Part shown: positions 5,548 to 22,739 of the stretch, in pieces | Position numbering within the stretch: the stretch's first letter is position 1 | How the letters are laid out: each line of letters begins with the position of its first letter | Source: Patescibacteria group bacterium | Lineage (GTDB): Bacteria > Patescibacteriota > Patescibacteriia > UBA9570 > JAHJKD01 | Length of the DNA: 64,000 nt | Reading direction: 5' to 3' | Assembly (NCBI GenBank): GCA_018822435.1 | Contig: JAHJKD010000003.1 | Coordinates: forward strand, 1,208 to 65,207 | The notes under the pieces: generated by a model | What the model saw: only the letters and a program-made list of their open reading frames with translations | Told to the model about the DNA's origin: nothing | Databases searched by the model: none | Position numbers and translations under genes: made by a program

Positions 5548-5578
5548 CTGCACTTTCATCAACTAGGAGGGACCCACC

Positions 5579-5992: not shown

Positions 5993-5996
5993 ATCA

Positions 5997-6634: not shown

Positions 6635-6691
6635 AATTTTTAGAGTTTTTTATTAAAAAATTTATTTATTACCTATTAATTAAAATATTTC

Positions 6692-6718
6692 ATATAACGT
6701 TCGTGTGTATGCGATGTT
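6692..6718. repeat. attC-like half-site F (end box plus left arm only)
   Basis: ATATAAC-GTTC-GTGTGTATGCG-ATGTT. Abuts the fic stop codon. Its arm can pair (one G-T wobble) with the arm CGCATACACGC of half-site E at 7638..7648. Confidence 0.5.
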
Positions 6719-7357: not shown

Positions 7358-7359
7358 AA

Positions 7360-7575: not shown

Positions 7576-7596
7576 AAATTAAAATAAAAAGAAATA

Positions 7597-7658
7597 AAAT
7601 ATGGGTGAAGTGAGGAGGAGGTACGACGACGAACGGAACCGCATACACGCTGTTAAAC
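7597..7658. repeat. attC-like half-site E (conserved core, right arm and end box)
   Basis: AATATGGGTGAAG...GAACCGCATACACGC-T-GTTAAAC. Its terminal box GTTAAAC is the exact reverse complement of box GTTTAAC at 8241..8247, across the def cassette. Confidence 0.5.
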
Positions 7659-7673
7659 GAAGTCAAGAAAAAT

Positions 7674-8219
7674 CTATGTTATATAATTTATTATTTTATG
7701 AATTACATTGAGCTTCTTTTGATCATACAATTCATCTATTGAAATTAAGTTCTTACAATCCTGAATTCTATCAATATATAAAATAGCATCAAGGTGATCA
7801 ATCTCATGTTGAACTAATCCTGCGAGTTTCCCTGAAAAATTGTACATACATTTTTTGCCTTGATTATTATACGCTTTGATAGTGATTTTTTTAAATCTTT
7901 TAACAAAGCTGCGCAAATAGAAAAAACTAAGGCATCCTTCACGGTTATTGATTAATGCTTTAGACTTTTGAATGATTTGCGGATTGATAAAAATATTAAA
8001 CTTTTCTTGATGATATATAATTATTATACGAACAGGATACCCTAATTGTGGCGCACAGAGCCCATTCCCATGGGAAGATGATATTCTTTTTATTGCCTTC
8101 ATTAATCTGATAATTTTACGAGATATCATCTGGACATCTTTTGATTGAATAGACTTAAGAGGTATCCTTTTAGATTTTTTCCGTAGGATAGGATTACCTA
8201 ATTGAAGAATTTTTTTCAT
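7674..8219 (-). CDS. def: Peptide deformylase, second divergent copy carried as a cassette
   Basis: All three PDF motifs are present: GNGLCAPQLG (motif 1, GxGxAAPQ with A changed to C), EGCLS (motif 2), QHEIDHLD (motif 3, HExxH). A canonical def-fmt pair sits at 59.5-60.9 kb. Confidence 0.8.
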   Translation of the reverse strand: MKKILQLGNPILRKKSKRIPLKSIQSKDVQMISRKIIRLMKAIKRISSSHGNGLCAPQLGYPVRIIIIYHQEKFNIFINPQIIQKSKALINNREGCLSFFYLRSFVKRFKKITIKAYNNQGKKCMYNFSGKLAGLVQHEIDHLDAILYIDRIQDCKNLISIDELYDQKKLNVIHKIINYIT

Positions 8220-8240
8220 AGAAAGATTTTTCTCGATTTT

Positions 8241-8334
8241 GTTTAACGTTCCTGGCTATGCGATGTTGCGACCGAAGGGAGCAATATGGGTGAGCTCTCT
8301 CGAAAGAGAGCGAACCGCATAGCCAGTGTTATGT
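8241..8334. repeat. attC-like structured repeat D
   Basis: GTTTAAC-GTTC-CTGGCTATGCG-ATGTT ... AATATGGGTGAG-CTCTCTCGAAAGAGAG-CGAACC-GCATAGCCAG-T-GTTATGT. The 11-bp arms CTGGCTATGCG and CGCATAGCCAG are perfect complements. End boxes fit RYYYAAC and GTTRRRY. Confidence 0.6.
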
Positions 8335-8382
8335 GTTGTAATTAAATTCAGCGAGCGAAGCGAGCTATATTATTGGGGTAAT

Positions 8383-9201
8383 TTATTCTTCGAAAATTTT
8401 TTCAAAGAATTTAACACGAGATTGTTTTGGATTGGGTAATAACATAATTTCTCTTAGATTTTGTATTTTACCATCTCTGATGAGTTCGGATAATATATCT
8501 AATACGGTAGAATTCTGGCCAAATATAACTCCGCCCGGCTTACATACTCTAACCATTTCTTCCATGAGGGCATAGTTATAATCTGATTCCGGTGGAGTAC
8601 CCTGCTTGGGACGAATGATAGTGTCGTCCATTCCATTGATCACCAAATTAGCTGAATCAGACGGTGCCGTGGCAAGAGTTAATAGCACATCGTCATTGAT
8701 GTAGTAACCATTATCTAAATTCGGCATTCTGATGGATTCTGGATTTGCTGGCGGGAGTGTGTGTTTGGCCTTAGCATTTTTTGAATCAATACCGATATAT
8801 TGACTTGCTCCAAATTCTTTGACTATGTTGCCAATAGAAAAATTCGCATCTTGTAAGACTCTTTCACCACAACCTAAGTCAATTAAGATTTGTCCATTTA
8901 GCTTTTGCTGTAGATATTCTTTAATTTTTTGTCGGACTTCTGGCGACGATTCCCCATAGGGACGACTCTCTTCGTCACCCAATCCTGCCCAGTAGTCAGC
9001 GAACTCGGTTTGATAACCTCCAAATTCTGTGTGCTCAATTATCTTGGTATATATAATGAGTCTGAGCTTTTCATCAAAATTTTCATCTTTATTCCAGTCC
9101 TCAGCTTTGCTAAGAGGCGGAATTAGATTTTGGATACGGAAAAAATTTCCGATATCAAATTGACTTTCTTGTTCTCTTCTTGGTCCTCTTTCAATGCTCA
9201 T
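8383..9201 (-). CDS. Class I SAM-dependent methyltransferase (orphan, substrate unknown)
   Basis: Motif I ILIDLGCGE (hh[DE]hGxGxG) and post-I CKPGGVIFG. No adjacent restriction partner. Confidence 0.6.
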   Translation of the reverse strand: MSIERGPRREQESQFDIGNFFRIQNLIPPLSKAEDWNKDENFDEKLRLIIYTKIIEHTEFGGYQTEFADYWAGLGDEESRPYGESSPEVRQKIKEYLQQKLNGQILIDLGCGERVLQDANFSIGNIVKEFGASQYIGIDSKNAKAKHTLPPANPESIRMPNLDNGYYINDDVLLTLATAPSDSANLVINGMDDTIIRPKQGTPPESDYNYALMEEMVRVCKPGGVIFGQNSTVLDILSELIRDGKIQNLREIMLLPNPKQSRVKFFEKIFEE

Positions 9202-9269
9202 ATTTCAAATAATAAATTGCCCCAATAATATACTTTTCTGCGACAGCAGAAAAGGAATTTAATTATTAC

Positions 9270-9396
9270 ACATAACGTTCCTGCGTATGCGATGTTTGCC
9301 AGTGGTATAATTGCACGAAGTGCTTACCACTGGCAAATATGGGTGGAGGCTTGCGGAGGTACGGAGCAAGCCGTAACCGCATACGCAGTGTTAGCT
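9270..9396. repeat. attC-like structured repeat A
   Basis: ACATAAC-GTTC-CTGCGTATGCG-ATGTT-[hairpin GCCAGTGGTA..TACCACTGGC]-AATATGGGTGGAGG-[hairpin GCTTGC..GCAAGC]-CGTAAC-CGCATACGCAG-T-GTTAGCT. Arms are perfectly complementary. The left box is the reverse complement of D's right box. The right box is the reverse complement of B's left box. Confidence 0.65.
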
Positions 9397-9460
9397 GATG
9401 TATTCCTTTTCTTTTCCGACGATAGTCGGTTGTTTTAAAAATTTTCAAATTTCTTTTTCC

Positions 9461-9592
9461 GTTTTGGGTGGTGGGCAGAGGGGAATTAAAGGGGTGAATG
9501 CCCGCCACCCAAAACACCTATTTCTGGTTTGAGGGAGGGGCAAGAGGGGAACAAAAGGGGTGAATTGCCCCGACCGAAAACTCTCTATTCTA
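9461..9592. repeat. Two tandem ~60-bp G-rich hairpin repeat units
   Basis: Unit 1 is GGGTGGTGGGC-AGAGGGGAATTAAAGGGGTGAAT-GCCCGCCACCC-AAAACACCTATTTCT. Unit 2 is GAGGGAGGGGC-AAGAGGGGAACAAAAGGGGTGAATT-GCCCC... The conserved core AGAGGGGAAnnAAAGGGGTGAAT is enclosed by a stem in each unit. Confidence 0.5.
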
Positions 9593-10334
9593 CTTGTCCA
9601 ATCTCTTTTCTGTATAAACAGTAGTCACAATCTTTGTCTGCCTTTGGTATTTTGTCATTTTCCAAGCACTTCTTGATATCTTTTAATGTTTTCTCTACCC
9701 AATCGTCACTTCCGATGTATTCAATAAGGTGAATATCAAATTCTAGTTTTGCATCAAAGGCTTTTTCATCTGGTCGTCCTGTGCAGTATACAAAATAACC
9801 TGTATTTGACATTTTGAGACCGTTTTGGCGTAAGAGCCACTGATATACTTCCATTTGCCTCTTATAGCCGTCCTGCCAGTCTTTATCCAGCTCTGTGACA
9901 GCTTCTGATTTTGCAGTAGCCTTGTAGTCTACAACAATGTATTCCTTTGTTTTTGGATCAAGCCACAAATCATCAATTGCTCCGCTGACGATAAAACCTG
10001 TTGGCTTGTGTGTGCACTCAACGCCTTTAAAGTTTTCTCTCCAAATATCTAGCGATTCGTGGGCTATAGGAATAGCATTAATGCCGTATTGTTTTTGTAT
10101 GGCGTGTTGTTCGCCGTTTGCTCGGTGTGCGTCAAATTCTGTTTTTAGGAGGTTGTCTACCGCGCTATTGAGTGAAAATGGATATCCGGGCGGTCGTTTC
10201 AATCCAAGTTTGTTATCCAAATAAAAACATTTTGGACATTGCTGGAATAAATCTATTTTTGAGCGTGAAAGACGCCAGCGTTTTCCGCCGTAGTTCCAGT
10301 CTGCTTTTCGTGGGATTGAGTAGTAGTCGGACAT
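9585..10334 (-). CDS. PD-(D/E)XK nuclease family protein with four Cys (Cas4/RecB-nuclease-like fold)
   Basis: Motif GAIDDLWLD...EYIVVDYKAT (D ... [D/E]xK). Cys pairs CPKC near the N-terminus and CDYC near the C-terminus suggest a metal or Fe-S site. Confidence 0.5.
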   Translation of the reverse strand: MSDYYSIPRKADWNYGGKRWRLSRSKIDLFQQCPKCFYLDNKLGLKRPPGYPFSLNSAVDNLLKTEFDAHRANGEQHAIQKQYGINAIPIAHESLDIWRENFKGVECTHKPTGFIVSGAIDDLWLDPKTKEYIVVDYKATAKSEAVTELDKDWQDGYKRQMEVYQWLLRQNGLKMSNTGYFVYCTGRPDEKAFDAKLEFDIHLIEYIGSDDWVEKTLKDIKKCLENDKIPKADKDCDYCLYRKEIGQVE

Positions 10335-10364
10335 GAAATTTAATTATTAATTAATATTTATTCA

Positions 10365-11576
10365 TCAAATCAGTTTCTTGGCCTTGCGATACATTTTTTT
10401 ATATGAATTTTCATTCACTTTCCTCAAAAACAATTTAAGGTCATTTTTTGCAATGATTTTATCTCCAAAGTAATACGATAATATCCCACTTCCATAAAGC
10501 AAGGCTGGTTCTTTATTTTTTTGGTATTCATTATTCAAAAATTCTACTACCTCAAGTGGATTAAATCCCAGTCTTTCAACTGGAATTGAAACTAACTTCT
10601 CATAACATTTAAAAGCACTTTTATAATTTTTCTCTAATATCTTAAAAAAGGCTAAATCAACAATTGTAAGCGTAGAGCTGGGGTATTTTTGTTGAAGTTC
10701 AGTTACGACTTTTTGAGCTTCTGCAATTTTTCCTTGTTTATACAAAAATGTAGCTAAATTTGTTAGTGCAAAATGATTATTCACATCGAGTTTCAAAATT
10801 TTATTACAAAATTCAATGCCTTTATTAAAATCTTTTTTATTTAAACCAAATTCAACAACTAAAATTGTATAATCATCAATAAGGTGGATAGCTGTGCTTT
10901 GTATTAAATCATCATTCCTTTTAGCTAGACTGTTATACAAACGTTCTAATAGAGCGATACTCTTACCAATTTTTCCATAAATCTTTAGTGAAAGCGCTAT
11001 TGTATATATTGATAAATCGAAGATATTGTTTGAAACGATTTGAATATCCTCAAATGAGTTATGTTCGATAATGTTCCAGTAATTTTTTCGTGCCATTCTC
11101 GACCTTAAATCTGCCAAAATCATTTTTCCTATTCTCTTTTCCTTATCATCTGGATGACCAAACGTAAAACTTAAATTTAATTTATTTATGTTGTTTCCAT
11201 CTTTTTTTAGGTTATCAACTGTGAAATCTCCCCATATAATCAAATCAATGTCTTTTTTATTTCTAAATTTTTCTGCTTCTTCCTGATTTTTAAATTTTTT
11301 AATATCTGAAAAATCTTGAACAACTACATATTTATCTAAATCTTGTTCTTTTAGGACTTGATTTATGTTTTTCTTTATTTGTTTGAAATAACTTCCAGAG
11401 TTCAAACCTTCATCAAATTCTATAGAAAGAGCGATGTTAAAATTAGCTGGAAACCATTGGAGTTTTCTTGCTCTGAGCCAATTATATAATTGCTTACGAT
11501 AAGTCCAACAGGCAGTCCCCAAGCCCCCTATTATTAGTAATATCAGCCCACTTATTATAGATTCAGTAATTTCCAT
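10365..11576 (-). CDS. Membrane-anchored protein with a C-terminal TPR-like repeat domain (unknown function)
   Basis: N-terminal TM helix (IISGLILLIIGGLGTA). Central domain without known motifs. C-terminal helical repeats of ~34 aa (ALTNLATFLYKQGKIAEAQKVV, AFFKILEKNYKSAFKCYEKLV). Confidence 0.45.
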   Translation of the reverse strand: MEITESIISGLILLIIGGLGTACWTYRKQLYNWLRARKLQWFPANFNIALSIEFDEGLNSGSYFKQIKKNINQVLKEQDLDKYVVVQDFSDIKKFKNQEEAEKFRNKKDIDLIIWGDFTVDNLKKDGNNINKLNLSFTFGHPDDKEKRIGKMILADLRSRMARKNYWNIIEHNSFEDIQIVSNNIFDLSIYTIALSLKIYGKIGKSIALLERLYNSLAKRNDDLIQSTAIHLIDDYTILVVEFGLNKKDFNKGIEFCNKILKLDVNNHFALTNLATFLYKQGKIAEAQKVVTELQQKYPSSTLTIVDLAFFKILEKNYKSAFKCYEKLVSIPVERLGFNPLEVVEFLNNEYQKNKEPALLYGSGILSYYFGDKIIAKNDLKLFLRKVNENSYKKMYRKAKKLI

Positions 11577-11631
11577 AATTTATTTTCATTACATTTTTCG
11601 AATATATTGAATTGTTAAAACCAAAAATATA

Positions 11632-12879
11632 TCATTTTACCAATTCACCACGAAAAGCTTTCCGGAACAGTGATTGTTGAATTTTATCAGTACGACTTTT
11701 AGCTTCTTTATATATATTTCTGGCTTCATTGACTTTACTTTTTATCATAGTTAGACGGTCAACAATCTTTTCTTGCTCCTCAATCGGCGGTAATGCTATT
11801 TGATATGTTTTAATATAATCAGTAGGAACACGAGCTTGACCCGCCGTCCCCGTCATATGTTGTTGCGCAATATGCCTAAAATAATCACTTCTTAAAATTG
11901 AATAAATGAATTTTGCATTTAGTCTGTCTGAGGGTCTAATGACATGAAATTCAGTAGTCCCAAACCCAATTCCATTAACCAAGTTATTAGCAATCGCTGA
12001 TTTACCATTTTCCATACAAGGTGTGATTTTTGCAAACAAGACATCGCCATTCTTGAAATAAGTGTAACCTTTTCGTACTTTTCCAATTTTTCTTATTTCA
12101 GGTGTTTCAATTTTCCCTGTATGCTCGTTTACTGCAGCCATTGGCACAAAACTAACATCTGTATCATCAGAAATATCTTTGACTTCGCTTTTTTTGGGAT
12201 TTATTTCAGCAATATCTTGTAATTCGACCATTTCCCAGCCTTCAGGTAGTACACTTTCATCATCTGGAATAAGCTTATGGAGTGCTGAAGACATTACGTT
12301 GGCTAAACGTATTTCAGCTTCAAAAAGTAATGACGTTGATTTTGTTAAAATACTTTTTGACTCGTTAAGTTTCATTAAAATCTCTTTTTGATTTGGAATT
12401 GGCGGAAGTGGAATTCGAAGATCTTTAATTATCGTTTGGCTTATATTTGATTGCGCCCCACCAAAACCCTTATCAATTAGGTTATCTTTTTCATTTATAA
12501 GATAAATTTTTAAAAAATCCTTTAAGATTTTACTTTCATCTGGAAAGAATGCACAAACGGCTTGGTTTGTTGTAGCTTCTATGCCAAGTTCAGCTGTTTG
12601 ACCAATGTTTGCTCCGTACATAGCCATTAAAAAAGTTCCTTTGGGTAGAATCTTTACGTTACTTGATTTTAAAGCATCTTTTGTGATTTTTTCTTCTGTT
12701 TCAAAAATTATATTTTCTTTTAATTCACCTGATTTTACCCAAGAAATTTTACCATTTTTATAAAATTCTTTATTGTTTCTACTTGGAGTTCCACCACTGG
12801 TTGTCTTACAAACAGTTTTTAGTTCTACCATTTTCCAGCCAGCAGGAAGTTCTATTTCATTATTTTTCATAATATACAT
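11632..12879 (-). CDS. hsdS: Type I restriction-modification specificity subunit HsdS
   Basis: Two target-recognition halves, each ending in the conserved motif LPPIxxQxxI (LPPIPNQKEIL and LPPIEEQEKIV), plus coiled-coil spacers. Confidence 0.8.
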   Translation of the reverse strand: MYIMKNNEIELPAGWKMVELKTVCKTTSGGTPSRNNKEFYKNGKISWVKSGELKENIIFETEEKITKDALKSSNVKILPKGTFLMAMYGANIGQTAELGIEATTNQAVCAFFPDESKILKDFLKIYLINEKDNLIDKGFGGAQSNISQTIIKDLRIPLPPIPNQKEILMKLNESKSILTKSTSLLFEAEIRLANVMSSALHKLIPDDESVLPEGWEMVELQDIAEINPKKSEVKDISDDTDVSFVPMAAVNEHTGKIETPEIRKIGKVRKGYTYFKNGDVLFAKITPCMENGKSAIANNLVNGIGFGTTEFHVIRPSDRLNAKFIYSILRSDYFRHIAQQHMTGTAGQARVPTDYIKTYQIALPPIEEQEKIVDRLTMIKSKVNEARNIYKEAKSRTDKIQQSLFRKAFRGELVK

Positions 12880-12885
12880 AGTTAA

Positions 12886-14244
12886 TTATCCCAATTCCTT
12901 TTGTAAATCTTCTAATTTATCTATCGCTTCTTTTAAAAAGTTTACACTTTCTTCAATTAAAACATTTGGCTCAGGAAGATTTGAGGGGTCATCGAAACTT
13001 TCATCTTTAAGCCATTTTAAATCTAAATTAAAATTTCTTTTTTTCAAATCTTCAAATAGGAATTTCTTCCATCGTTCTGTTTCCTGGTCTCTATTTTGAT
13101 ATTTCTCAAGAAAATCATTAAAGTATTCAGATTTTAGCGGTTTCCTTTTGGAAATTTTTTCTACATTTGTACGCAAGTCGTAAAACCACAAATTTTCTGT
13201 TTTCTCTCCTGTCTTTTCAAAAAAGATAACATTGGTTTTAACCCCAGGCGTATATGGTGTGAATGTTCCGTTTGGTAATCTAATTATGGTATGTAGATTA
13301 AAATTTTCTAAAAGCATTTTTCGTATTTTTGTCCCTGCTCCTCCTTCAAATAGAACGTTGTCTGGCATTACCATCGCACACCGACCACCATTTTTTAAAA
13401 TACTCATACAATGTTGTAGAAAGTTTAGTTGACGACTTTTGGTTACAACAAAAAAATCATCCCTACTATAAGAAACGCTGTTCGTTTTTTTGAAGGGCGG
13501 ATTTGTAAGAATTACATCATACCCATCGCCATACTTTTCTTTCAAAGAATCACCATAGGTAATTTGACCTTCTATTTCATGTAGATAAAGATTCATTATA
13601 CAAAGTCTTCTCGTTTCCCAAACAAATTCACCTCCTGAAATGGCTTCTTTTTGCAAAAAATCATATTCCTCTCTTTTTAAGCTCTTTTTTTCTTTTTCAA
13701 GCTCTTTAAAAATATACTCAAATGCTTCAATTAAGAATCCCCCCGTACCACAGGCAGGGTCATGGATTGTTTCATTGTGTTTAGGGTTTATACATTTAAC
13801 GATTGTTCGAATCAGTTCACGAGGGGTAAAATACTGACCAGCGCCTTTCTGTTCTGCTGCATATTTTGCGAGCAACCCTTCGTAAGCTGCTCCTTTAACA
13901 TCTATATCAATAGAAGACCACTCTTCATCGTCCAAAGCTCCAATTACTTTGTTTAGGCTAACAGGATTTCTAAATTTATTGTTTGATTGAGCAAAAATAT
14001 CTCCAAGCACTCCGGCTTCTTTTCCAAGATTCTTCAAAACTACTTCATAATGCTCAATAAGAGCCATGCCACTATGATTCATTAAAGTTTGCCAACTGTA
14101 TTCACTTGGTATACGAATACCTTTTTCATCAGCCATTTTGAGAAACAGCAAATATGTTAATTGTTCTATATAGTCACCATAATGCATACCTTCATCGTGA
14201 AGATTTCCTGCTAATGACCAAAGTTTTTGTACGATATCTGACAT
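12886..14244 (-). CDS. hsdM: Type I R-M N6-adenine DNA methyltransferase HsdM
   Basis: Motif IV NPPF (ILTNPPFKK). SAM-binding region DPACGTGGFL. N-terminal HsdM helical domain. Confidence 0.85.
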   Translation of the reverse strand: MSDIVQKLWSLAGNLHDEGMHYGDYIEQLTYLLFLKMADEKGIRIPSEYSWQTLMNHSGMALIEHYEVVLKNLGKEAGVLGDIFAQSNNKFRNPVSLNKVIGALDDEEWSSIDIDVKGAAYEGLLAKYAAEQKGAGQYFTPRELIRTIVKCINPKHNETIHDPACGTGGFLIEAFEYIFKELEKEKKSLKREEYDFLQKEAISGGEFVWETRRLCIMNLYLHEIEGQITYGDSLKEKYGDGYDVILTNPPFKKTNSVSYSRDDFFVVTKSRQLNFLQHCMSILKNGGRCAMVMPDNVLFEGGAGTKIRKMLLENFNLHTIIRLPNGTFTPYTPGVKTNVIFFEKTGEKTENLWFYDLRTNVEKISKRKPLKSEYFNDFLEKYQNRDQETERWKKFLFEDLKKRNFNLDLKWLKDESFDDPSNLPEPNVLIEESVNFLKEAIDKLEDLQKELG

Positions 14245-14257
14245 AGTATTTTAGTTA

Positions 14258-16939
14258 TTACATTGGTTGTAAAATATGTTCATTTATACGCTCTAGGGTT
14301 TCATTCAATTTACCTTCAAAATCCCTATTTGCTTTTGAAAAGCCACCCTTTCTACTAAAAGGCAATGAACGAAAATCGCTAGACTCTACAATGATATTTG
14401 TTTCAAGGTGGATTTTTATATCATCAAGCCATTGTTGCTGTGGCTCAGTCTCGCCCTCAAGTAACATTATCTTAAATGCTTTTTCTATACGTTGTCGTGG
14501 TGTATATAATTTTGTATTCCACATGGCGTGTGAAACAAATGCATATAAGTCAGCTGGGGTTTTAGTATGAGTTGCAATTTCATTTGCGCGTCTTAAATTA
14601 TCTTCTGTGAACCGTTCAGGTGTTTTTGCTAATTCATTTTTAAGCTCCTTGAAATGTTTCATTGAAAATTGTCTTGGTGAATTTAAAAGTATTTTAAGTG
14701 CCTCAATTGTCTTAGCATTTTGCTTAATATATTGCTTAAATGTTTCTAAGTAGTCTTTTGGTTTTAATTCTCTTCCGTCTGTAGTTCGAAAAATATATTC
14801 GGAGGTTGCAATTTCTGCCTTTTTTTCTTTAGAAATTATGAAACCTTGCCTGTAACGAGGGTAATTTTGTAAAAATTCAAGAAAATTAGGGTCTGACATT
14901 TGATTTAGAGCTTCTTCTTCTTGCTGAGCAAGCCTATCTTGAATACTTAATGAGAATTCTTGCAAGTTACCATCTGGTACTGCAAAGCGATTTTCAAGTT
15001 CTTTCCTCCCTTCTTCTGTTATATTCTTATCTACTCTTTGCAACTTCCTAGAAAGAGATTTCACGTTATCTTCAATATCTTTTCCATCACGAATTTCTTT
15101 AATGATTTCACCATAAGTCTTTCCAGCTTTCGTAATTGGTTGCATTATATCTCCGCCTTGCTCCTTCATGAAATCTATTACGCCAATAGCATCAAATACT
15201 GTGAAATGAGTTTTGTTAATATCTTTACAAAGCCGTGTGCCTCTACCAATCATTTGTTCGTAAAGAATTCGTGAACGAATAGGTCTTGCAATAAGCAAAT
15301 TTTCAATTGCTGGCACATCAACACCAGTAGAAAGCATATCAACGGTGACAACTATCCGTGGTTTTTTTAGATTTCTAAATTTACGAATTAGCTCATTTGG
15401 CTTATCGACGGTATAAGTTATTTTTTGAACAACATCATCACCTTCACCTAATTCTTTTCTAAATAGCTTTACCAATTGATTTGCATGTCGCTCATTAACA
15501 CTAAAAACTAAAGTTTTCTCATCTTTTCCAATATATTTACAGACTTCTTTAACAATTTTTCGGTTTCTATCTTCAACAGTCACTTTTCTCTCTAATCCGC
15601 TTGTATCAATATGCAAATCATCATCAAGAAGCTCATCTTTATGTTTTTTGGTTTTCCATTCCTCTATTGTAACTCCTTCTCCTTTTGAAAAAGATACTTC
15701 TTCTTTCATATCTATATCTGTTCGTATTCGTACTGCATCGAAATCTACTAAATATCCATCATCTACTGCCTTTAAATAGCCGTAAGAATACAGATCCTTT
15801 TCATCATGAACATCAAAATATGCTGCTGTGTGAGCTGCAGGCGTAGCAGTCAGTCCAAATTGATGTACATCAAAGTAATCCAAGACATATTTCCATTTAT
15901 TATAAATCGATCGATGGCACTCATCAGATATAATTAAATCAAAAGAATCAATTGGAAAATTCTTGTTATATTCAATTGGACTATCATCCCCGTCAGCCCA
16001 TTCATCTTCTGTTTTAACATCTACACCACTATCTCTGCCTTTAAGCATAGAATACAGTCTTTGTATGGTAGATACATAAACAAATGTATTTGATTTCTTT
16101 CTCTTTTTTAATTGTGATGGCTGTAATACCTCAGCATTATAATCAATTTTTTCACCATCTTCAGGCGTTGGTATCTTGTCACAATAGACAGAATATAAAG
16201 TATCAAATTTATTACCTTTTTCAGGTTCAAATGTTGAAAGAGCCGTTACTGTTTGATCTGCTAAACTTCTTCTATCAACCAAGAATAAAATTCTTTTAAA
16301 ATATCCAGACTTCATTAAATGATACATTAAGGCTGAAGCTGCAAATGTTTTTCCCGTACCAGTTGCCATTGCAATAAGCCCCATTCGTTTATTGTTCAGC
16401 AATCTGTTAACAACATATTCTGCGGCTTCTTTTTGATAAAATCTTAAAGCACGGTCGCCGTAAACAGTTTTAATCTCTTCGTTTTGAAGATACTTTATTG
16501 CGTTATTTTTATCTTCGGAAAGTCTTTCTGTTAAACTTTCTGGTGTATGAAAACCTTCAACTGCTCGACTAAAACTAGGTGATTCTCTTAAATTTTGAAA
16601 CCGTATATCTGTACCATTAGAGCTGTATACAAAAGGCACTTTGTAGCTGCCATACTTAGATTCAAAACCTTCTAAATCTTCTGCGTATCGTAAAGACTGG
16701 GTTAATACGCCATCAATTTGAGTTCCTTCCTTTTTTGCTTCAACTACACCTACAGGTTTACCATCAATTGTAAGTAAGTAATCAGCATCACCTGAGCTTG
16801 TAGGATATTCATAAATAGCCTCACAATCACTCCCTTTGATATCCGTTTTTCGCGAGACAACAGACCAGCCTGCTTTTTCAAGCAGTTTATCAATTTTTTC
16901 TGAACGTGTTTTTGATTCTTTAGGCATATTAAATTTCAT
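14258..16939 (-). CDS. hsdR: Type I restriction enzyme HsdR (helicase/nuclease subunit)
   Basis: Walker A MATGTGKTF and DEAH-box DECH (SDECHRS). N-terminal PD-(D/E)XK-type nuclease region. 893 aa. Confidence 0.85.
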   Translation of the reverse strand: MKFNMPKESKTRSEKIDKLLEKAGWSVVSRKTDIKGSDCEAIYEYPTSSGDADYLLTIDGKPVGVVEAKKEGTQIDGVLTQSLRYAEDLEGFESKYGSYKVPFVYSSNGTDIRFQNLRESPSFSRAVEGFHTPESLTERLSEDKNNAIKYLQNEEIKTVYGDRALRFYQKEAAEYVVNRLLNNKRMGLIAMATGTGKTFAASALMYHLMKSGYFKRILFLVDRRSLADQTVTALSTFEPEKGNKFDTLYSVYCDKIPTPEDGEKIDYNAEVLQPSQLKKRKKSNTFVYVSTIQRLYSMLKGRDSGVDVKTEDEWADGDDSPIEYNKNFPIDSFDLIISDECHRSIYNKWKYVLDYFDVHQFGLTATPAAHTAAYFDVHDEKDLYSYGYLKAVDDGYLVDFDAVRIRTDIDMKEEVSFSKGEGVTIEEWKTKKHKDELLDDDLHIDTSGLERKVTVEDRNRKIVKEVCKYIGKDEKTLVFSVNERHANQLVKLFRKELGEGDDVVQKITYTVDKPNELIRKFRNLKKPRIVVTVDMLSTGVDVPAIENLLIARPIRSRILYEQMIGRGTRLCKDINKTHFTVFDAIGVIDFMKEQGGDIMQPITKAGKTYGEIIKEIRDGKDIEDNVKSLSRKLQRVDKNITEEGRKELENRFAVPDGNLQEFSLSIQDRLAQQEEEALNQMSDPNFLEFLQNYPRYRQGFIISKEKKAEIATSEYIFRTTDGRELKPKDYLETFKQYIKQNAKTIEALKILLNSPRQFSMKHFKELKNELAKTPERFTEDNLRRANEIATHTKTPADLYAFVSHAMWNTKLYTPRQRIEKAFKIMLLEGETEPQQQWLDDIKIHLETNIIVESSDFRSLPFSRKGGFSKANRDFEGKLNETLERINEHILQPM

Positions 16940-16957
16940 TACATTGTTCTGATTGTT

Positions 16958-17173
16958 CTAACCCTGATTTTCAGGTGAACTTTTTTTCAAGAATGTTATT
17001 ACGTCTTTCTTGTGATAGCGTCTTGGCTGCGTATCACTTGGACGAAAGGCTTTAAGTAGTCCTTTATCGTCCCAACGTCTTAATGTCATAAGAGAAACTT
17101 GTAGTATATCTGCAACTTCCCGAAGGGATAGTATTTCCGGCATATCCTTTAATTGGTCTACTAGGTTTTTCAT
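16958..17173 (-). CDS. Small HTH DNA-binding protein (MerR/excisionase-type helix-turn-helix)
   Basis: 71 aa. LSLREVADILQVSLMTLRRWDDKGLL is a typical excisionase/MerR-family HTH. Located between the GmrSD-like gene and hsdR. Confidence 0.5.
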   Translation of the reverse strand: MKNLVDQLKDMPEILSLREVADILQVSLMTLRRWDDKGLLKAFRPSDTQPRRYHKKDVITFLKKSSPENQG

Positions 17174-17183
17174 AACAATAAAA

Positions 17184-19250
17184 TTAAGAAGAATGCTTAT
17201 TAAGTGATTGCTGTATTAAGAAAATGGCATAATCAATCTCCTCAGGCTCAGATAAGCTTACTTCTACATCTCCATTTCCCCAGCGTCCTAAATCCGTAAC
17301 ATCTTTTGCCATTCCTTTTGGGTCATCAAGTTCCTCAAATTTCATATTTAGAGAAAGTCTTAATCTGGTTTTTTGAGGGACAACATCTACAAAGTTTGTT
17401 GAAGTTTTGAAAGCTATGTAGAGCTTCATACATTCTTCTCTAATCTCTGGATTTAAAAGCATGATTCGCTCTTTTAATAGCTCGTAGAGAGTGAACATGT
17501 CGCCTTGTAGGTATTCATAATCTTCAATGTTGTAATCAGCTTCTTTTTCTGGTTGTAAGTCTTTTTTGTACTTCTCCAATATCTCATCAGATAAAACTGG
17601 AGCTTTCCAGATTTGCAGGGCTTCTTTGCTTAGAGTTTCGGCTCGTTGTTTAATCGTTTCTTCATTCCAAGTATCAAGGTCTATTAAATCTTTATTTAAA
17701 CGCACAGAGCTTTCTTTAAATCCTTTCTGCATATCTCTTTTTTCTGTGAACGATTTATTACTCATATCAGAGTTGTACCCCGTAAGAGTAAGATTTCCGA
17801 TAGTGTGCAAATACTCACTTTGGATTCTCTGGAAGTCCTCTCCAAGTGCTTCCTTCCATTGAGGGGTTAAGGTTTGAGGCATGATATGCTCAACGCTCAA
17901 ATCATCAAGATTTACTCGCTCTTTATTGTTGTGGTGTTCAATTTTCTCGAAGAGATAACCGCTATTTCTGAAATTGTAAACATCTTTCTTGGCTAGCTCC
18001 TCCTTAAATTCACTATCCTTAGGAAGTCGGTGATAGCTCTCTCGTAGTATGAAATTAGCCATGAGGCTTTCAATGTAATTCTCTGGCTCGATTTCTTTGT
18101 AGAGGTTCGCAAAGGTCTTATTAAGGGAATTGGTAGGAATACCACAAATAGCACGTCTAAAGACGTAGCATTCAACCAGTTTGAGAACTTCAATGAAATC
18201 TTCCTTTGTGATTATGTTGTTTTCGTAATCATCATAAACACTCATCAGGAATGGGTAAGCTACCTCAACCTTTAGAGTTCTGATGTTGTTAATTATCTCG
18301 TTTATTTGATTGTCTTCTTCTTTGTTAAATTCAAGTTTGGCGTAGTACTTTGAAAACTTGTGGACGTCTGCCACTACCTCTTCAATTTCTCTTCCGAAAA
18401 TATACTGCTTGTATGTTGTGTAAACTGAATCTAGGGTTGGGATTGAGCCTGTTTTGATAGTAAGGAAGCCACGCATGAAGTAGTCAAACTTTTCTTCATT
18501 TTGACCTTCGATAAAAAGGCTCTCCATTGGTAGCCAATACTTGGTGTAAATTTCTTTCTGATGGTCTGGCTCAAGCCCCATGAGAACATAATTCCTAATA
18601 AGGTCAGATTGAGACAAATCCAGTCCGGTAGAATTAAGACTTTCAAAAATAAGCTGAGGGTTGTCCTCTCTATCTAATGCAATATCAACAATGATAAGTT
18701 TTCGTATTCCTTTGAATAAATCATCAAGGTTAATGTTGCCTTTTTCTATTTGAGTAACAAAAAATAGGTAATTTTGGTAAATACGTTCGATTTCTTCATC
18801 TTTTGATATTTCTTCACCATCAACCAATTTTCTAAATACTTCTTTGTCATGTCGTGTAAGGCTTAGTTTAATTCGTTTATCATCTTTACTGTACTCATTC
18901 ACAAGGAAAGAGTTCATGATTTGACGTTTTGTAACCTCGTATTTCTCCTCCGATTTCTTCAAGGCATTCACCATTGCCAAGAAAAGCAATGACAGGGTTG
19001 TCAGTCTCTGCTGTCCATCAATTACAAGAGCCTGATTTGTACCTGCGATGTTATACATGCCAGCGGCTACATAAACGACCGAACCTATAAAGTGAGCAGG
19101 AACTGTATCATCAGTCGAAACTCGCAAAATATCATTCCAAAGTTGCTTACATTGGATTAAATTCCAGCTATAGGTACGCTGATAAATGGGAATAATGAAC
19201 TGCTGTTCTTTATTGATGAACGATATAAAATTGGTTTCTAATGCCTTCAT
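17184..19250 (-). CDS. GmrSD-like type IV (modification-dependent) restriction endonuclease, DUF262 plus DUF1524/HNH
   Basis: N-terminal DUF262 motifs YQRTYSW and IDGQQRLTTL (ParB/Srx-like NTPase). C-terminal His-Me finger LSVEHIMPQ (DUF1524). 688 aa. Confidence 0.75.
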   Translation of the reverse strand: MKALETNFISFINKEQQFIIPIYQRTYSWNLIQCKQLWNDILRVSTDDTVPAHFIGSVVYVAAGMYNIAGTNQALVIDGQQRLTTLSLLFLAMVNALKKSEEKYEVTKRQIMNSFLVNEYSKDDKRIKLSLTRHDKEVFRKLVDGEEISKDEEIERIYQNYLFFVTQIEKGNINLDDLFKGIRKLIIVDIALDREDNPQLIFESLNSTGLDLSQSDLIRNYVLMGLEPDHQKEIYTKYWLPMESLFIEGQNEEKFDYFMRGFLTIKTGSIPTLDSVYTTYKQYIFGREIEEVVADVHKFSKYYAKLEFNKEEDNQINEIINNIRTLKVEVAYPFLMSVYDDYENNIITKEDFIEVLKLVECYVFRRAICGIPTNSLNKTFANLYKEIEPENYIESLMANFILRESYHRLPKDSEFKEELAKKDVYNFRNSGYLFEKIEHHNNKERVNLDDLSVEHIMPQTLTPQWKEALGEDFQRIQSEYLHTIGNLTLTGYNSDMSNKSFTEKRDMQKGFKESSVRLNKDLIDLDTWNEETIKQRAETLSKEALQIWKAPVLSDEILEKYKKDLQPEKEADYNIEDYEYLQGDMFTLYELLKERIMLLNPEIREECMKLYIAFKTSTNFVDVVPQKTRLRLSLNMKFEELDDPKGMAKDVTDLGRWGNGDVEVSLSEPEEIDYAIFLIQQSLNKHSS

Positions 19251-19369
19251 AATTGAAATTTAATTAATTTTCTCAGGTTATACAAAGTATTACAAAGTTA
19301 GTATAACAATTCTAGTGTTTTTCACAAGAGAATGAAGGGAAGAGAAGAGCTGTATATTATAAAGAGTTG

Positions 19370-19500
19370 TTCCGCCGATAGGCGGAACTCCATATATTCC
19401 CCTCATTAAAAAAGCGTTTCCGTAGCGTAGCGGAGGAAACACCATATTTCCCCTTATAAATAAATCGTTTTCGGAGCAAAGCGGAGAAAACACCTTATAT
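19370..19500. repeat. Three tandem ~45-bp hairpin repeat units
   Basis: Units are GTTCCGCC-GATA-GGCGGAAC-TCCATATATTCCCCTCATT, GTTTCC-GTAGCGTAGC-GGAGGAAAC-ACCATATTTCCCCTTAT and GTTTTC-GGAGCAAAGCGGAG-AAAAC-ACCTTATATCCACTC. Hairpin stems differ between units but the tail nCCATATnTCCCCT is conserved. Confidence 0.5.
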
Positions 19501-19582
19501 CCACTCTAAAAATAAAGAAAAAGAAATTTGAAAATTTTTTAAAACAATTGGGCGATAGCCCAGAAAAGAAAAGGAATATTTC

Positions 19583-19697
19583 AGCTAACGTTTCGGCATA
19601 TACGATGTTGCACGGGTGTATAATAGCCGACAGGCTACACCCGTGCAATATGGGCGGAGCGACCATCGGGAGCGTAGCCGTATATGCCGTGTTATAT
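19583..19697. repeat. attC-like structured repeat B
   Basis: AGCTAAC-GTTT-CGGCATATACG-ATGTT-[hairpin GCACGGGTGTA..TACACCCGTGC]-AATATGGGCGGAGC-...-CGTATATGCCG-T-GTTATAT. Arms are perfect complements and covary relative to A and D. The left box is the reverse complement of A's right box. The right box is the reverse complement of C's left box. Confidence 0.65.
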
Positions 19698-19721
19698 GAT
19701 GTAATTTATCAAAATTTTTTA

Positions 19722-20870
19722 CTATTCTATTTTTAATATTTTGCAATCCACGAGATATGGCGACTTGAAATCTGTCATTTCGCCTGCTTTTTTGCCTGGA
19801 ACAGGAAATAATCTTGCTGATAATGGCTTATCTAACTTAATTGCTAAAGTCGCCATATCGAGAAGTGTCGCTTCAATCTTTTCTGCTGGCGTGTCGCCTG
19901 GAATTGGAACTGTGTCTAAACCAACACCGCAAACTGCTGAATATAAAAGCAGGTTAGTAATGCCGTAGGTAGCTTCATTTGCTCTCGTTGCAAGTCCAAG
20001 GTCTTCGCATACTGGGAGCATAAGACCAGAATAGCCACATATCTTAACTGACAAACCTTTGAGTACACGAGTGACCAAAGCAGAAATTGTAAGTGTTCCT
20101 TGACTTCCAAATTTGCCAAAGCCGAGTTTTTCAAAAGCAAAAGCAATACTTTCATGCTCCTCAAGTCCTGGATTTAGTGAAGCATCAATACCATTATAGC
20201 CAATGCCAAAGTCTTTTGAAATCTGTTGAGCTAAATCGGCGACTTTCTTAGTTTCTTCTTCAAATATTGCTTTTAGGTTTTGCTCTGCTTCTATGAGATT
20301 GCTTGATTTTGAAAATGCCTTCACGGCTAAGTCTCCGCACTCCAAGCCAATACCGAAAGCGGTTTCTCCCTCGTGAAAACCGGTAGGAAAGAACGGAATA
20401 CCTGGCTTACAATTTGCGGAGGCGCAGAATCTAAAATTGCCGTAACCGTTTTCGGTTTCCTCTGCAATTCGTTTGATAACTTGAGCTGCTATTTTGGCAT
20501 TTTCAAAATCTATTCCACTTTCCTTGTCGCCGATTTTGGCGGAGCATGAAATTTGAGAGGTAACTTTATTAAATTCAGGAATGAGTTTAATTTTATCTGG
20601 CGTTTTTGCGTAGCCCATATTGAAAAAACTTACGTCGAGGCTTTGGCAAATTTGTTCTATTTTTTGAATCGCACTTACAATTTCTGCGTCTGAAAGACTA
20701 CCAAGATATTCTTCCCATGAATTAGTGGCTATTCTGGTCGTCTGCACTTCATAACCTGCTTTTTCAAACACTTCCTTAGCTTTGCGATTGAATTCAGCAG
20801 TTTGTCTTATTTGATCTTCAATATCAGGTGATTGAAGCGACACGCCAGTTGTTATTGTTCTTATTTTCAT
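19722..20870 (-). CDS. DUF711/UPF0210-family protein
   Basis: N-terminus MKIRTITTGVSL resembles the conserved DIRTITMGISL start of UPF0210 proteins. 382 aa, shorter than typical family members. Assignment is from memory of the family signature. Confidence 0.45.
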   Translation of the reverse strand: MKIRTITTGVSLQSPDIEDQIRQTAEFNRKAKEVFEKAGYEVQTTRIATNSWEEYLGSLSDAEIVSAIQKIEQICQSLDVSFFNMGYAKTPDKIKLIPEFNKVTSQISCSAKIGDKESGIDFENAKIAAQVIKRIAEETENGYGNFRFCASANCKPGIPFFPTGFHEGETAFGIGLECGDLAVKAFSKSSNLIEAEQNLKAIFEEETKKVADLAQQISKDFGIGYNGIDASLNPGLEEHESIAFAFEKLGFGKFGSQGTLTISALVTRVLKGLSVKICGYSGLMLPVCEDLGLATRANEATYGITNLLLYSAVCGVGLDTVPIPGDTPAEKIEATLLDMATLAIKLDKPLSARLFPVPGKKAGEMTDFKSPYLVDCKILKIE

Positions 20871-20912
20871 GGTGCGAAATATTAAAAATTAAAAATTTTG
20901 ATAAATTATTTC

Positions 20913-21001
20913 ATATAACGTTTCGGCATAGCCGAAGTTTGACGGGTGTAAAATACGCCGAAGGTGTACACCCGTCAAATTTGGGTGAGCGAGCGTTAAA
21001 A
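20913..21001. repeat. attC-like structured repeat C (variant)
   Basis: ATATAAC-GTTTCGGCATAGCCGAAGTT-[hairpin TGACGGGTGTA..TACACCCGTCA]-AATTTGGGTGAGCGAGC-GTTAAAA. The left arm self-pairs here (TTCGGC-ATA-GCCGAA). Confidence 0.5.
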
Positions 21002-21021
21002 ATAAAATTGTTTTTATTCGT

Positions 21022-21462
21022 TTAGAATAATAACTTGTATGTTACTCCTTCTTTCCATTGTGGATTTTCCCATTCTTTGAAATCAAAATTTTCACATAGA
21101 TTTCGCATAGGAGAATTTTTAAAAGCGGTTTCTGTAACAACTCCTGTAGCTTTTTTGTTTTTTGCGTGTTCAATACATCTACCCATCAGTTTTTTTCCTA
21201 TACCAAGCTTTTGAAAATATGGATCAACGAGTATTTCACGGATGAAAAAGAAATTGTCTTCCCACCAACCTCTGTCTATAGAACAAAAAGCCACAAATTC
21301 AGCTCCTTTCTTTGCGATAAGATAAAGGCTATCTTTTAGCTGAAAGTGTTTTTTTAGTGAATCTATTGTGGCTTTGTCGTAGGTATAATTGAAAGATTTT
21401 TTATTACGTAAAAAATCAATTTCTTTTTCATTTTTCATCTCTGTAATTTTGATTTCATCCAT
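21022..21462 (-). CDS. GNAT-family N-acetyltransferase
   Basis: Acetyl-CoA-binding motif A QKLGIGKKLMGRCIEHAK (Q/RxxGxG/A). About 145 aa, the typical size for a single GNAT domain. Confidence 0.75.
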   Translation of the reverse strand: MDEIKITEMKNEKEIDFLRNKKSFNYTYDKATIDSLKKHFQLKDSLYLIAKKGAEFVAFCSIDRGWWEDNFFFIREILVDPYFQKLGIGKKLMGRCIEHAKNKKATGVVTETAFKNSPMRNLCENFDFKEWENPQWKEGVTYKLLF

Positions 21463-21483
21463 AGAATTAAAACAATTTTATTT

Positions 21484-21513
21484 AGCTCGCGAACCGGCTA
21501 TGCCGTGTTAGCT
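21484..21513. repeat. Truncated attC-like site G (arm plus end box only)
   Basis: AGCTCGCGAACCGGCTATGCCGT-GTTAGCT. Resembles only the right arms of A, D and E. Box GTTAGCT is the reverse complement of AGCTAAC at 21783..21789. Confidence 0.45.
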
Positions 21514-21521
21514 GAAGTTAA

Positions 21522-21752
21522 TTATTTTTCCCATTTTAAGTATGCCCTAATATTTAAGGCAATTAGGATTATGCAAACAATTACTCCAGGCCAGATTTGA
21601 GCCATGTAGTTGACTATGATCCACGCTATATTCGCAGCAATATAGATTATGAACGCATATCTTTTTTTATTGCCAATTAGGTAAACAAAAAGGAGTGAGC
21701 CTGTCATAGCTATCCAGTCTATACCATAGTAATTGCCAATTATATGTTCCAT
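21522..21752 (-). CDS. Small hypothetical membrane protein (2 TM), first cassette next to the attI-like region
   Basis: 76 aa with two hydrophobic helices. No assignable family. Confidence 0.35.
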   Translation of the reverse strand: MEHIIGNYYGIDWIAMTGSLLFVYLIGNKKRYAFIIYIAANIAWIIVNYMAQIWPGVIVCIILIALNIRAYLKWEK

Positions 21753-21917
21753 ATAGAAAAATAATTAATTTCAGCTAACTGGTTATTATACGAAGTGTTT
21801 TCATATAATATGCATGATTTAGGGTGTTATGCGGCTATTGCGGAGAAGGGAAGATTGCTGTAATATTTTAAATAACATCCTAAAAACATCTTCTAATATA
21901 CTTAAAATTCATCAATT
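21753..21917. promoter_or_regulatory. attI-like region and divergent promoter zone between the recombinase gene and the first cassette
   Basis: Contains box AGCTAAC (21783..21789) complementary to the first cassette's GTTAGCT, a TCATATAA element resembling the starts of repeats C and F, and a GTTATGC box (21836..21842). AT-rich with several -10-like hexamers. Promoter positions were not resolved. Confidence 0.4.
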
Positions 21918-22739
21918 ATGCAAGATTACCTCAAAAAGGCAAAGGAAGAGCTTTTGGTTCGGAATTATAGCCAAAAGACTATTAAAAGTTATACTTCTTG
22001 TTTGCGGAACTATTTTGAATATTTAGATTCTGTTGGTTTTGATTTGGGAGTGGTGGACAGGGAAGTGATAAAAAAATTCTTATTAAAGAAAAAGGGGAAA
22101 GGGTATTCACCACAAACTTTGAATCTTTTTCTCAATGCGATTAAATTTTTTTATAGAGAAATTATTAAATCACAGGAGGAAATTGATTTGAAGTTTTCCA
22201 AACGGTCGCAGAAATTGCCGGTGGTGCTATCGCGCAATGAAATCCAGCTCATCCTAGATGAGGTCGCTAATTCCAAACATAAGCTGCTGATCGGGTTGAC
22301 TTATGGGGCAGGCTTAAGGGTGAGTGAAGTCATAAATTTGAAGGTCAGGGACATTGACTTGGAGAGAGGAGTAATTGCTGTCCGAGCCGGGAAAGGGGAT
22401 AAGGATAGGATCACGGTTTTGCCTGAAAAATTATCGTCTGAAATAATGGCTAGGATAAGGGGAAGGAGTGGGCCGGAGTTTGTTTTTGTCAGTGAACGGG
22501 GCGGACGGTTGACAGCAAGAACAGCACAGAAAGTATTTGAAAATGCTTTGCGGAAGGCAGGGATCCAAAAAGATGCCACTTTTCATTCATTGCGCCATAG
22601 TTTTGCGACTCATTTACTAGAGAGCGGGACGGACATCAGATATGTGCAGACATTGTTGGGACATCGCAATATTCGGACCACGCAAATTTATACCCAGGTG
22701 AGCACGGCTAATATCAGGGCCATTGCCAGCCCGCTATAA
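21918..22739 (+). CDS. Site-specific tyrosine recombinase (XerC/XerD/IntI superfamily), the presumptive cassette integrase
   Basis: C-terminal catalytic region with R (LRVSE), K (GKGDKDR), HxxR (HSLRHSFATHLL), R and Y (HRNIRTTQIYTQV). N-terminal core-binding domain. Only 273 aa, and the segment between the KxxR box and HxLRH is ~58 aa, too short for the IntI-specific insertion. Confidence 0.85.
   Translation: MQDYLKKAKEELLVRNYSQKTIKSYTSCLRNYFEYLDSVGFDLGVVDREVIKKFLLKKKGKGYSPQTLNLFLNAIKFFYREIIKSQEEIDLKFSKRSQKLPVVLSRNEIQLILDEVANSKHKLLIGLTYGAGLRVSEVINLKVRDIDLERGVIAVRAGKGDKDRITVLPEKLSSEIMARIRGRSGPEFVFVSERGGRLTARTAQKVFENALRKAGIQKDATFHSLRHSFATHLLESGTDIRYVQTLLGHRNIRTTQIYTQVSTANIRAIASPL

Follow-up and report, generated by a model that had tools for sequence, protein, structure and literature searches.

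Organisation of the array and complementarity of neighbouring repeats

The window analysed here, 64,000 nucleotides of contig JAHJKD010000003.1 from a Patescibacteria group bacterium (candidate phyla radiation, CPR), carries an array of five structured sites and five gene cassettes beside a gene for a tyrosine recombinase (21918-22739, + strand). Each cassette consists of a structured core of ~95-130 nt, the equivalent of an integron attC site, and the gene or genes to the right of that core; the cassette open reading frames (ORFs) all lie on the - strand, opposite the recombinase gene, and are transcribed away from it. An attI-like site (21763-21834, +) is located 142 nt upstream of the recombinase gene. 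The arrangement is likely an integron-like cassette platform of the Patescibacteria, run by a recombinase of the Xer/IntI type. We infer recombination at the array from features that were observed directly, namely its anatomy, the covariation and strand asymmetry of the cores, their linkage to the recombinase gene, the complementarity rule followed by neighbouring repeats, and breakpoints at the sequence TAAC.

An earlier note on this DNA had claimed that at five junctions the 7-nt boxes ending successive repeats are exact reverse complements across the intervening cassette. All ten 7-mers are present and the five pairs match as claimed, with one coordinate corrected: the attI-side box AGCTAAC, previously placed at 21783-21789, was off by 10 and lies at 21773-21779. 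The variable part of each box comprises only the three outer bases (GTTA-nnn / nnn-TAAC). When the partners of the five boxes were permuted, all five matched in 2 of the 120 orders, and the chance of a 5/5 match is ~4e-6 if the family-wide triplet background of 8.2% is taken. Over the next 23 nt, with the box excluded, true neighbours agreed at 14-20 positions as compared with 4-11 for non-neighbours. The 7-mers are thus real but had been delimited too narrowly, since they form the inner end of cassette-specific stems of 24-74 nt; in gapped alignments the complementary stretches of the window measured 24, ~74, ~73, ~55, and 24 nt. Two sites had also been misread. Site G, taken for a truncated copy that left its junction with site C untestable, is one half of a single repeat of which C is the other half, with a GNAT gene inside hairpin P3 of the repeat (the fold is described below), and the parse of site E had missed a left half (6692-6735) and with it the position of two ORFs inside hairpin P2.

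The same rule was found in other CPR genomes. The loci examined (L-numbers) were fetched through homologues of the recombinase, except for L121, L092, L118, and L129, which came from a scan of viral contigs. Across the CPR loci, the triplets matched at 53/77 adjacent junctions against a background of 8.2%, and flank identity reached at least 17/28, the 99th percentile of the background, at 38/77 junctions against the corresponding 1%; the junctions between the last core and attI matched in 17 of 22 cases. Such matching between neighbours would be expected from a crossover at the conserved AAC/GTT.

Core repeat, attI-like site and recombinase in CPR genomes

To describe the repeat, a common fold was aligned from the five window copies and one copy of a related genome, and a covariance model built from those six sequences was searched over 1.14 Mb of the loci fetched via recombinase homologues. 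The search (cmsearch) returned 105 matches, every one of which was on the strand of the recombinase gene (+) and upstream of that gene. In the common fold, an R-arm duplex (tATTTC-nnn-TAAC paired with GTTA-nnn-GATGT) is followed by an asymmetric, unpaired centre with GTTyy opposite a single T, by the L-arm duplex P1, a 10-11-bp stem with a conserved TAT, and by a three-way junction bearing hairpins P2 and P3 and the conserved junction bases GAWGTT / AAWWTGGGTGA / GAACC. The fold was supported in the 85 best cores, from ~45 genomes, by pairing at 94% of positions as opposed to 73% in shuffles and 29-47% in slid controls, and in these cores both sides had changed in 23/31 pairs. Among the boxes (n = 83 on each side), TAAC accounted for 60 and CAAC for 13 of the left ones, and GTTA for 63 and GTTG for 14 of the right ones.

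The core is asymmetric with respect to strand. Conserved G.T pairs occur on the + strand only (78/85 in P2 and 65/85 in the R arm), the fold of this strand is more stable than that of its complement by 2.7-3.5 kcal/mol, and in the variable hairpin interiors CGAAG was found 18 times on the + strand as against twice for its reverse complement. The + strand is the template ("bottom") strand of all the cassette genes, and attC sites show an excess of G:T pairs on the bottom strand together with a conserved GAA in the terminal loop (PMC5027507). As judged from sequence, therefore, the core folds on the + strand as attC does on the bottom strand, with the signatures of G:T pairs, GAA loop, and fold energy all in agreement. 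With regard to the features by which attC sites are recognised, the unpaired centre and the variable hairpin tips are present in the cores, and no pattern of extrahelical bases was evident.

Of the 48 species-level loci that have 1 kb or more of DNA upstream, 40 contained cores. A total of 80 cores lay upstream of the recombinase gene (323 kb searched), whereas none was detected downstream of it in 713 kb and none on the other strand. Comparison of related loci showed where the arrays break. Loci L003 and L004, with identical recombinases, are 100% identical from TAAC rightwards and unrelated to the left of it; contigs L014, L061, and L075 start exactly at the TAAC of attI; and in 23/80 loci the DNA upstream of the recombinase gene falls short of 300 nt. 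The contig starts at TAAC and the many short upstream stretches indicate that assemblies branch there, and the frequent breaks are consistent with strain-level variation in cassettes. Loci L010 and L085 share a core, a cassette, and attI, and diverge at the left box of that core; in an all-against-all BLAST of the species representatives this pair was the only one with a shared block of at least 300 nt at 80% or more. Together with the TAAC breakpoints, this sharing identifies the mobile unit: a core and the gene that follows it on the right, each gene having its site on the 3' side.

Scanning viral contigs with the core motif (15 specified bases) yielded 42 hits. L121 alone was a clear array; single hits of lesser strength came from L092, L118, and L129, and the remainder look like chance. 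L121 (IMGVR_UViG_3300031565_000157) is a 37-kb phage-like contig encoding a DnaB-type helicase, a methyltransferase, a transglycosylase, and an endolysin. Four cores with short cassettes and an attI-like end were observed on its - strand at 9380-10510, and no recombinase gene adjoins this array.

The attI-like site of the window is built as arm, 6 nt, and arm, like a Xer core site: an R arm ending in ...ATTTCAGCTAA at 21778 is followed by the 6-nt central region CTGGTT (21779-21784) and the L arm ATTATACGAAG (21785-21795), and the predicted exchange point is TAA|C at 21778/21779. Further arm-like copies lie at 21798-21809 (inverted) and 21827-21834 (direct). At least 34 loci have the core sequence of the site, YAAC-TCGTT/TGGTT-nTATRCGAA, on the upstream side of the recombinase gene at a distance of 105-150 nt. 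In L003 one arm repeats the other almost perfectly in inverted form (TGTCGCATAA / TTATGCGAAA).

The recombinase encoded at 21918-22739 is a Xer/IntI-like protein of 273 residues with Pfam matches to PF00589 and PF13495, the latter an IntI-type N-terminal domain, and the catalytic residues R134, K159, H223, R226, H249, and Y258 are invariant in its family. It passed the cutoff of NCBIfam NF040815 ("XerA / integron integrase") with 229 bits (cutoff 220) and fell below that of the integron integrase model TIGR02249 (216.7 bits; cutoff 265), to which it matched in two stretches. In the alignment to VchIntIA, residues 177-199 of the query stand opposite IntIA residues 178-243, so that ~43 residues including the I2 segment are missing; an AlphaFold model (predicted local distance difference test score 85.5) has only short strands at residues 181-199 and no helix. 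By Foldseek, the best PDB match was the integron integrase VchIntIA (2a3v; E = 4e-17, 31% identity), ahead of archaeal XerA, with ~40 extra columns in the alignment to 2a3v. Given that I2 is absent both in the sequence and in the model, the window recombinase cannot be counted among the canonical integron integrases. CPR genomes contain, at E < 1e-30, more than 7,700 homologues of ~270 residues each, some of which are labelled "integron integrase" at NCBI; one classification assigns the family to a Xer-related "Cand" subgroup that may stand in for Xer (PMC8138268).

Cassettes of the window and their cargo

The cassettes are numbered here from the attI end. Cassette 1 (20919-21778) joins core C/G to the attI-proximal gene. 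The core (20913-21513, +) is one site in two parts, 20913-20995 on the left and 21486-21513 on the right, with a P1 stem paired at 10/10 positions and a perfectly matched outer stem (CGGCATAGCCG/CGGCTATGCCG). Nested in its hairpin P3 is an insert (20996-21485) that is closed by the inverted repeat 20996-21015 / 21469-21485 and contains the GNAT acetyltransferase ORF (21022-21462, -). An end motif of such nested inserts, GCGTTAARAATAAAA, was considered as a possible widespread element and was found only in window/L001 and L064. The attI-proximal gene (21507-21779, -) comprises a 76-aa ORF (21522-21752) between stem arms at 21507-21530 and 21756-21779 (24 nt, 96%), and the ORF has a weak match to the C-terminal part of a nicotinamide mononucleotide (NMN) transporter family.

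Cassette 2 (19589-20918) consists of core B and a DUF711 gene. Core B (19583-19697, +; 122.6 bits by cmsearch) is an intact three-way-junction site for which the DNA fold amounts to -34.3 kcal/mol on the + strand and -30.8 kcal/mol on the - strand. The DUF711 ORF (19722-20870) lies in the cassette gene at 19691-20919 (-), with stem arms at ~19691-19745 and 20873-20919.

In cassette 3 (9276-19588), the intact core A (9270-9396, +; 139.8 bits) is followed by a large multi-gene defence block (9390-19589, -) with Pfam matches to a PD-(D/E)XK nuclease, a TPR protein, HsdS, HsdM, HsdR, an HTH protein, and GmrSD. The stem arms of this cassette are in two pairs, 9390-9416/19563-19589 and 9433-9459/19517-19543, and its conserved end modules occupy 9390-9590 and 19440-19589. 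Tandem hairpins were observed at both of its ends (9461-9515 and 9527-9581; 19415-19500) and also in L003 (~3495-3545). The pair on the 5' side has covarying stems, GTTTTC/GAAAAC and GTTTCC/GGAAAC, with a recurring loop motif, GGAGCnnAGCGGAG, that was seen in the hairpin tips of some cores as well.

Cassette 4 (8247-9275) pairs the intact short core D (8241-8334, +; 94.1 bits) with a 272-aa ORF (8383-9201) in the cassette gene at 8328-9276 (-). Both of its stem arms (8328-8395 / 9203-9276) hold a local hairpin that includes GCGAAGC. The ORF had earlier been labelled a methyltransferase, a name without support from Pfam or NCBIfam, in neither of which a match was found.

Cassette 5 (6698-8246) combines the split core E with a peptide deformylase gene. 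Core E (6686-7658, +) has its left part at 6692-6735 and its right part at 7581-7658, with P1 paired at 10/10 positions if G.T is allowed, and carries an insert nested in hairpin P2 behind a 22-nt stem (6714-6735 / 7581-7602, 95%). Inside this insert are a Fic-family ORF (6719-7357, -) and a 71-aa ORF (7360-7575, -) upstream of it, which possibly constitute a toxin-antitoxin-like module; the Fic protein also matches "mobile mystery protein B", though weakly and below the cutoff. The deformylase ORF (7674-8219) belongs to the cassette gene at 7652-8247 (-), with stem arms at 7652-7675 and 8224-8247 (24 nt, 88%). Because the left box of core E, ATATAAC (6692-6698), has no partner further left, core E represents the distal end of the array.

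Across the CPR loci, cassettes had a median length of 764 bp, and the longest ORF was co-oriented in 42/44. The cargo is accessory in nature and includes GNATs, DNA methyltransferases, type I restriction-modification systems plus GmrSD, Fic proteins, membrane proteins, and unknowns. Mini-cassettes of ~83 nt that contain no ORF are conserved across genomes, with copies in L070 (7978-8061 and 9307-9389), L077 (711-793 and 1939-2021), L080 (1611-1696), and L068 (4053-4140); their 3' part is a perfect palindrome, TTATGCAAAATGCGC-G-GCGCATTTTGCATAA, with the R arm present on both strands.

Proposed mechanism and competing explanations

In the mechanism that we propose, the recombinase would bind attI as a duplex and would also bind a core, the folded + strand of which imitates a duplex core site. 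The folded strand is most likely cleaved at the A|C step of TAA|C, whereupon a single strand would be exchanged with attI or a second core. A further exchange would be blocked by the unpaired, non-homologous centre, and it would fall to replication to resolve the junction, as happens in integrons and when CTX phage integrates (PMC5027507, PMC7790495). Excision between successive cores would produce a circle in which both cassette ends pair and rebuild the R arm. Since the predicted exchange point is inside the R arm, the outer half of that arm would be left at the far end of its own cassette, and it is because this half is stranded across the gene that a right box and the DNA following it would be complementary to the next left box. 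For the DUF711 cassette the predicted excision junction is ...GATAAATTATTTCATATAA|CGTTTCGGCATATACGATG; at the predicted circle junction a continuous stem of ~47 bp forms together with the core (-64.1 kcal/mol, z = -14), while in the context of the array only the core forms (-42.6 kcal/mol). It may be speculated that the conserved protruding P3 branch and the junction take over the role of the extrahelical bases.

The logic of integron recombination by which the earlier note had explained the matching boxes holds at its core, with amendments concerning the canonical integrase, the assignment of R' and R'', the length of the stems, and the junction between G and C. The assignment had been inverted, given that it is the + strand that folds, that the genes lie on the opposite (-) strand, and that the unit is a core plus the gene to its right. 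Likewise, the exchange point had been placed at G|TT in the right box, whereas in our analysis it falls, on the + strand, within the left box of each repeat, at TAA|C; the complementarity is symmetric, and the earlier test could therefore not tell the two apart.

Several observations weigh against an integron-like reading. The I2 segment, which is absent from the window recombinase, is held to be required in integron integrases for cassette capture and for blocking a lethal second strand exchange (PMC7790495). Unlike those of classical attC sites, the junction and arm sequences of the cores are strongly conserved across the CPR. Adjacent junctions failed to match in 16/40 cases in one count and in 24/77 in another, and some of these may reflect undetected cores in between. 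Genes nested in hairpins P2 and P3 have no place in the classical model, and the window is not alone in having them: P3 inserts also occur in L038, L064, and L067, where stems of 19-26 bp are perfect and the P1 outside is perfectly matched. Conserved end modules are common to large cassettes (2.5-10 kb) whose defence cargo is unrelated; those of the 10-kb cassette recur in ~17 other CPR loci at 76-96% nucleotide identity with unrelated cargo (for example L084, 4286-4471/9569-9719, and L051, 6561-6692/9740-9883; also L047, L063, L086, L023, and others) and fall into at least two subfamilies, GCT-type and TAC-type. Identity of 96% between genomes whose recombinases are ~56% identical suggests, at the level of sequence comparison, that the end modules have spread horizontally of late.

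The long stems are a further difficulty of this kind. Crossover accounts for a match of 6-7 nt only, and stems of 24-74 nt are not predicted by classical integron biology; across the CPR loci the R-arm pairing extends over 24-100 nt (median 33) and abuts the ends of ORFs. Beyond position 12, the stem mismatches comprised 26 G.T and 23 A.C, i.e., without bias toward the + strand, so that folding of the bottom strand alone does not explain the long stems. That they are mere decaying relics is unlikely given that the two arms co-vary between homologous cassettes. The arms also hold local hairpins with covarying stems, and these two kinds of covariation indicate that the long stems are maintained, either by selection or by a copying mechanism.

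The most serious rival shares the mechanism set out above and differs in the purpose of the platform. According to it, the recombinase is the housekeeping Xer, attI is dif, and the array is a stack of single-stranded elements hijacking Xer in the manner of integrative mobile elements exploiting Xer (IMEX). The passing of the XerA-type model NF040815, the size and conservation of the ~270-aa CPR family, in which "Cand" may replace Xer (PMC8138268), the attI layout with the near-perfect inverted arms of L003, and the lack of I2, as in Xer, all fit this explanation. Yet there is no replication-type switch of GC skew at attI in the single window analysed, where skew follows gene orientation; genes diverge at attI rather than converge; attI is always 105-150 nt upstream of the recombinase gene; and most of the elements, like integron cassettes, comprise one co-oriented ORF and a site on its 3' side. 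On this balance we consider the Xer/dif explanation unlikely.

Far less probable is that the repeats are structured RNA of a long operon, acting as processing sites, insulators, or small RNAs, with stems that pair the 5' and 3' ends of mRNAs. The strong covariation, the GNRA-like loops, the stems abutting ORF ends such that mRNA ends could pair, and the lack of strand bias among mismatches in the stem extensions would all be expected of RNA, but the favoured strand is antisense to every cassette gene, no Rfam match was obtained at gathering thresholds over the whole window, and the explanation has nothing to say of the position upstream of the recombinase, the TAAC breakpoints, or the different cassettes behind identical attI sites. 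An ordinary integron, with an ordinary IntI and ordinary attC sites and nothing new, would have the same layout, the AAC/GTT ends, the bottom-strand signals, and the complementarity of cassette ends, and would suit the name "integron integrase" given by NCBI to some family members; we find it hardly credible all the same, since it is contradicted by the I2 test (216.7 bits on TIGR02249 where 265 are needed, with ~43 residues absent) and by the sequence-conserved three-way junction, the want of an evident extrahelical-base pattern, the stems of 24-74 nt, and the hairpin-nested genes. As the earlier note had concluded for transposons and miniature inverted-repeat transposable elements (MITEs), a selfish MITE-like or repetitive extragenic palindromic (REP)-like family, or modules of the Acinetobacter pdif type, can be dismissed almost outright: the repeats are indeed short, structured, repeated, and intergenic, but they occur in a single orientation and only upstream of the recombinase gene (80 cores there, 0 downstream, 0 on the other strand) where pdif requires alternating orientation, and their complementarity links each copy to its neighbour on the other side of a gene instead of joining the ends of a single copy.

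The integron-like platform that we favour has its closest counterpart in the sedentary chromosomal integron of Vibrio cholerae, the superintegron with IntIA, attIA, and attC sites of the Vibrio cholerae repeat (VCR) type. Both have the recombinase gene beside attI and a divergent array in which the ORFs, mostly single and co-oriented, each precede a structured site with conserved 5'-AAC-3'/GTT ends, an outer R-box half supplied by the cassette's own start, a G:T excess and GAA loops, long sites that are similar in sequence within an array, and accessory cargo such as GNATs and toxin-like genes. The CPR system differs in that its recombinase has no I2 helix and fails the cutoff of the integron-integrase model, its three-way-junction site is conserved throughout the superphylum and not merely within a species, R-arm pairing reaches 24-74 nt into the cassette, genes reside in hairpins, and cassettes of 2.5-10 kb carry end modules. 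With Xer/dif and IMEX, for which CTX phage with its single-stranded DNA hairpin and XerC is the example, it has in common the missing I2, the core site of arm, 6 nt, and arm, the folded single strand mimicking a duplex site, a mismatched centre that allows one strand exchange, and the stacking of elements at one site; unlike them, it has one recombinase gene beside the site, minimal and uniformly oriented cassettes in place of phages or islands, a conserved three-way-junction site in each unit, and no terminus signal at the site in the skew of the window. Archaeal XerA (PDB 4a8e, 5hxy) is similar in length and domains, is likewise a single-recombinase system, and corresponds to the best sequence-model match, NF040815, whereas it acts on a duplex dif in chromosome resolution and is not the closest fold, which is 2a3v; to our knowledge, no cassette arrays are associated with it. 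The pdif modules of Acinetobacter also consist of genes bracketed by Xer-type sites and undergo modular exchange of accessory or resistance genes, but their sites are 28-bp duplexes in alternating orientation, whereas the CPR sites are directly oriented, ~100 nt long, and folded.

The system is thus integron-like in its working but without the defining feature of the integrase. Integron integrases are thought to have gained the ability to recombine folded single-stranded sites through acquisition of the I2 helix, and the CPR system, in which a recombinase is tied to arrays with attC signatures, is a natural and widespread candidate for the missing I2-less state. If it is active, I2 would not be the sole route to cassette capture and the origin of integrons would become open to experiment. 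If our reading is correct, standard integron finders, which depend on the I2 signature and on known attC models, miss a gene-capture system of the CPR; in many CPR genomes, accessory and defence genes would appear to reside mainly in its arrays, and the frequent assembly breaks just upstream of the recombinase gene would be explained. The literature contains integron surveys that include CPR genomes and were run with standard tools. In the searchable literature, in which subscription journals are thinly covered so that an earlier description is possible, we found no account of these arrays, their sites, or the role of the CPR recombinase.

The long stems and hairpin-nested genes may also bear on the unsolved origin of cassettes. 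We put forward, as a doubtful conjecture, that the CPR harbours an ancient integron lineage that recombines folded single-stranded DNA sites without I2, either as the ancestral intermediate between Xer and integrons or as an independent invention, and that its anatomy may record the genesis of cassettes by capture of ORFs into the hairpin loops of sites. The idea of hairpin-loop capture derives from the arm-matched stems that abut ORFs, the ORFs nested in P2 and P3, and the mini-cassettes without an ORF.

Around the attI site, a scan for sigma-70 promoters and terminators was uninformative (3 sites as compared with 2.9 expected). Directly past the distal end of the array, a stretch of higher G+C content with small membrane-protein ORFs (5560-6640) may be of foreign origin, or may be a degraded cassette in which no site can be recognised. 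On the other side, a small coiled-coil ORF directly follows the recombinase gene in the window (22790-23143) and in L003 (4655-4969); as a universal accessory factor it was rejected, being 59% identical in the close relative L003 and absent from L006. Beyond the recombinase gene (23252-27580) are genes of nicotinamide adenine dinucleotide (NAD) biosynthesis, encoding a nucleotidyltransferase, NadA, a quinolinate phosphoribosyltransferase, and a NadB-like flavoprotein, and their proximity to the NMN-transporter-like fragment at attI may be a coincidence.

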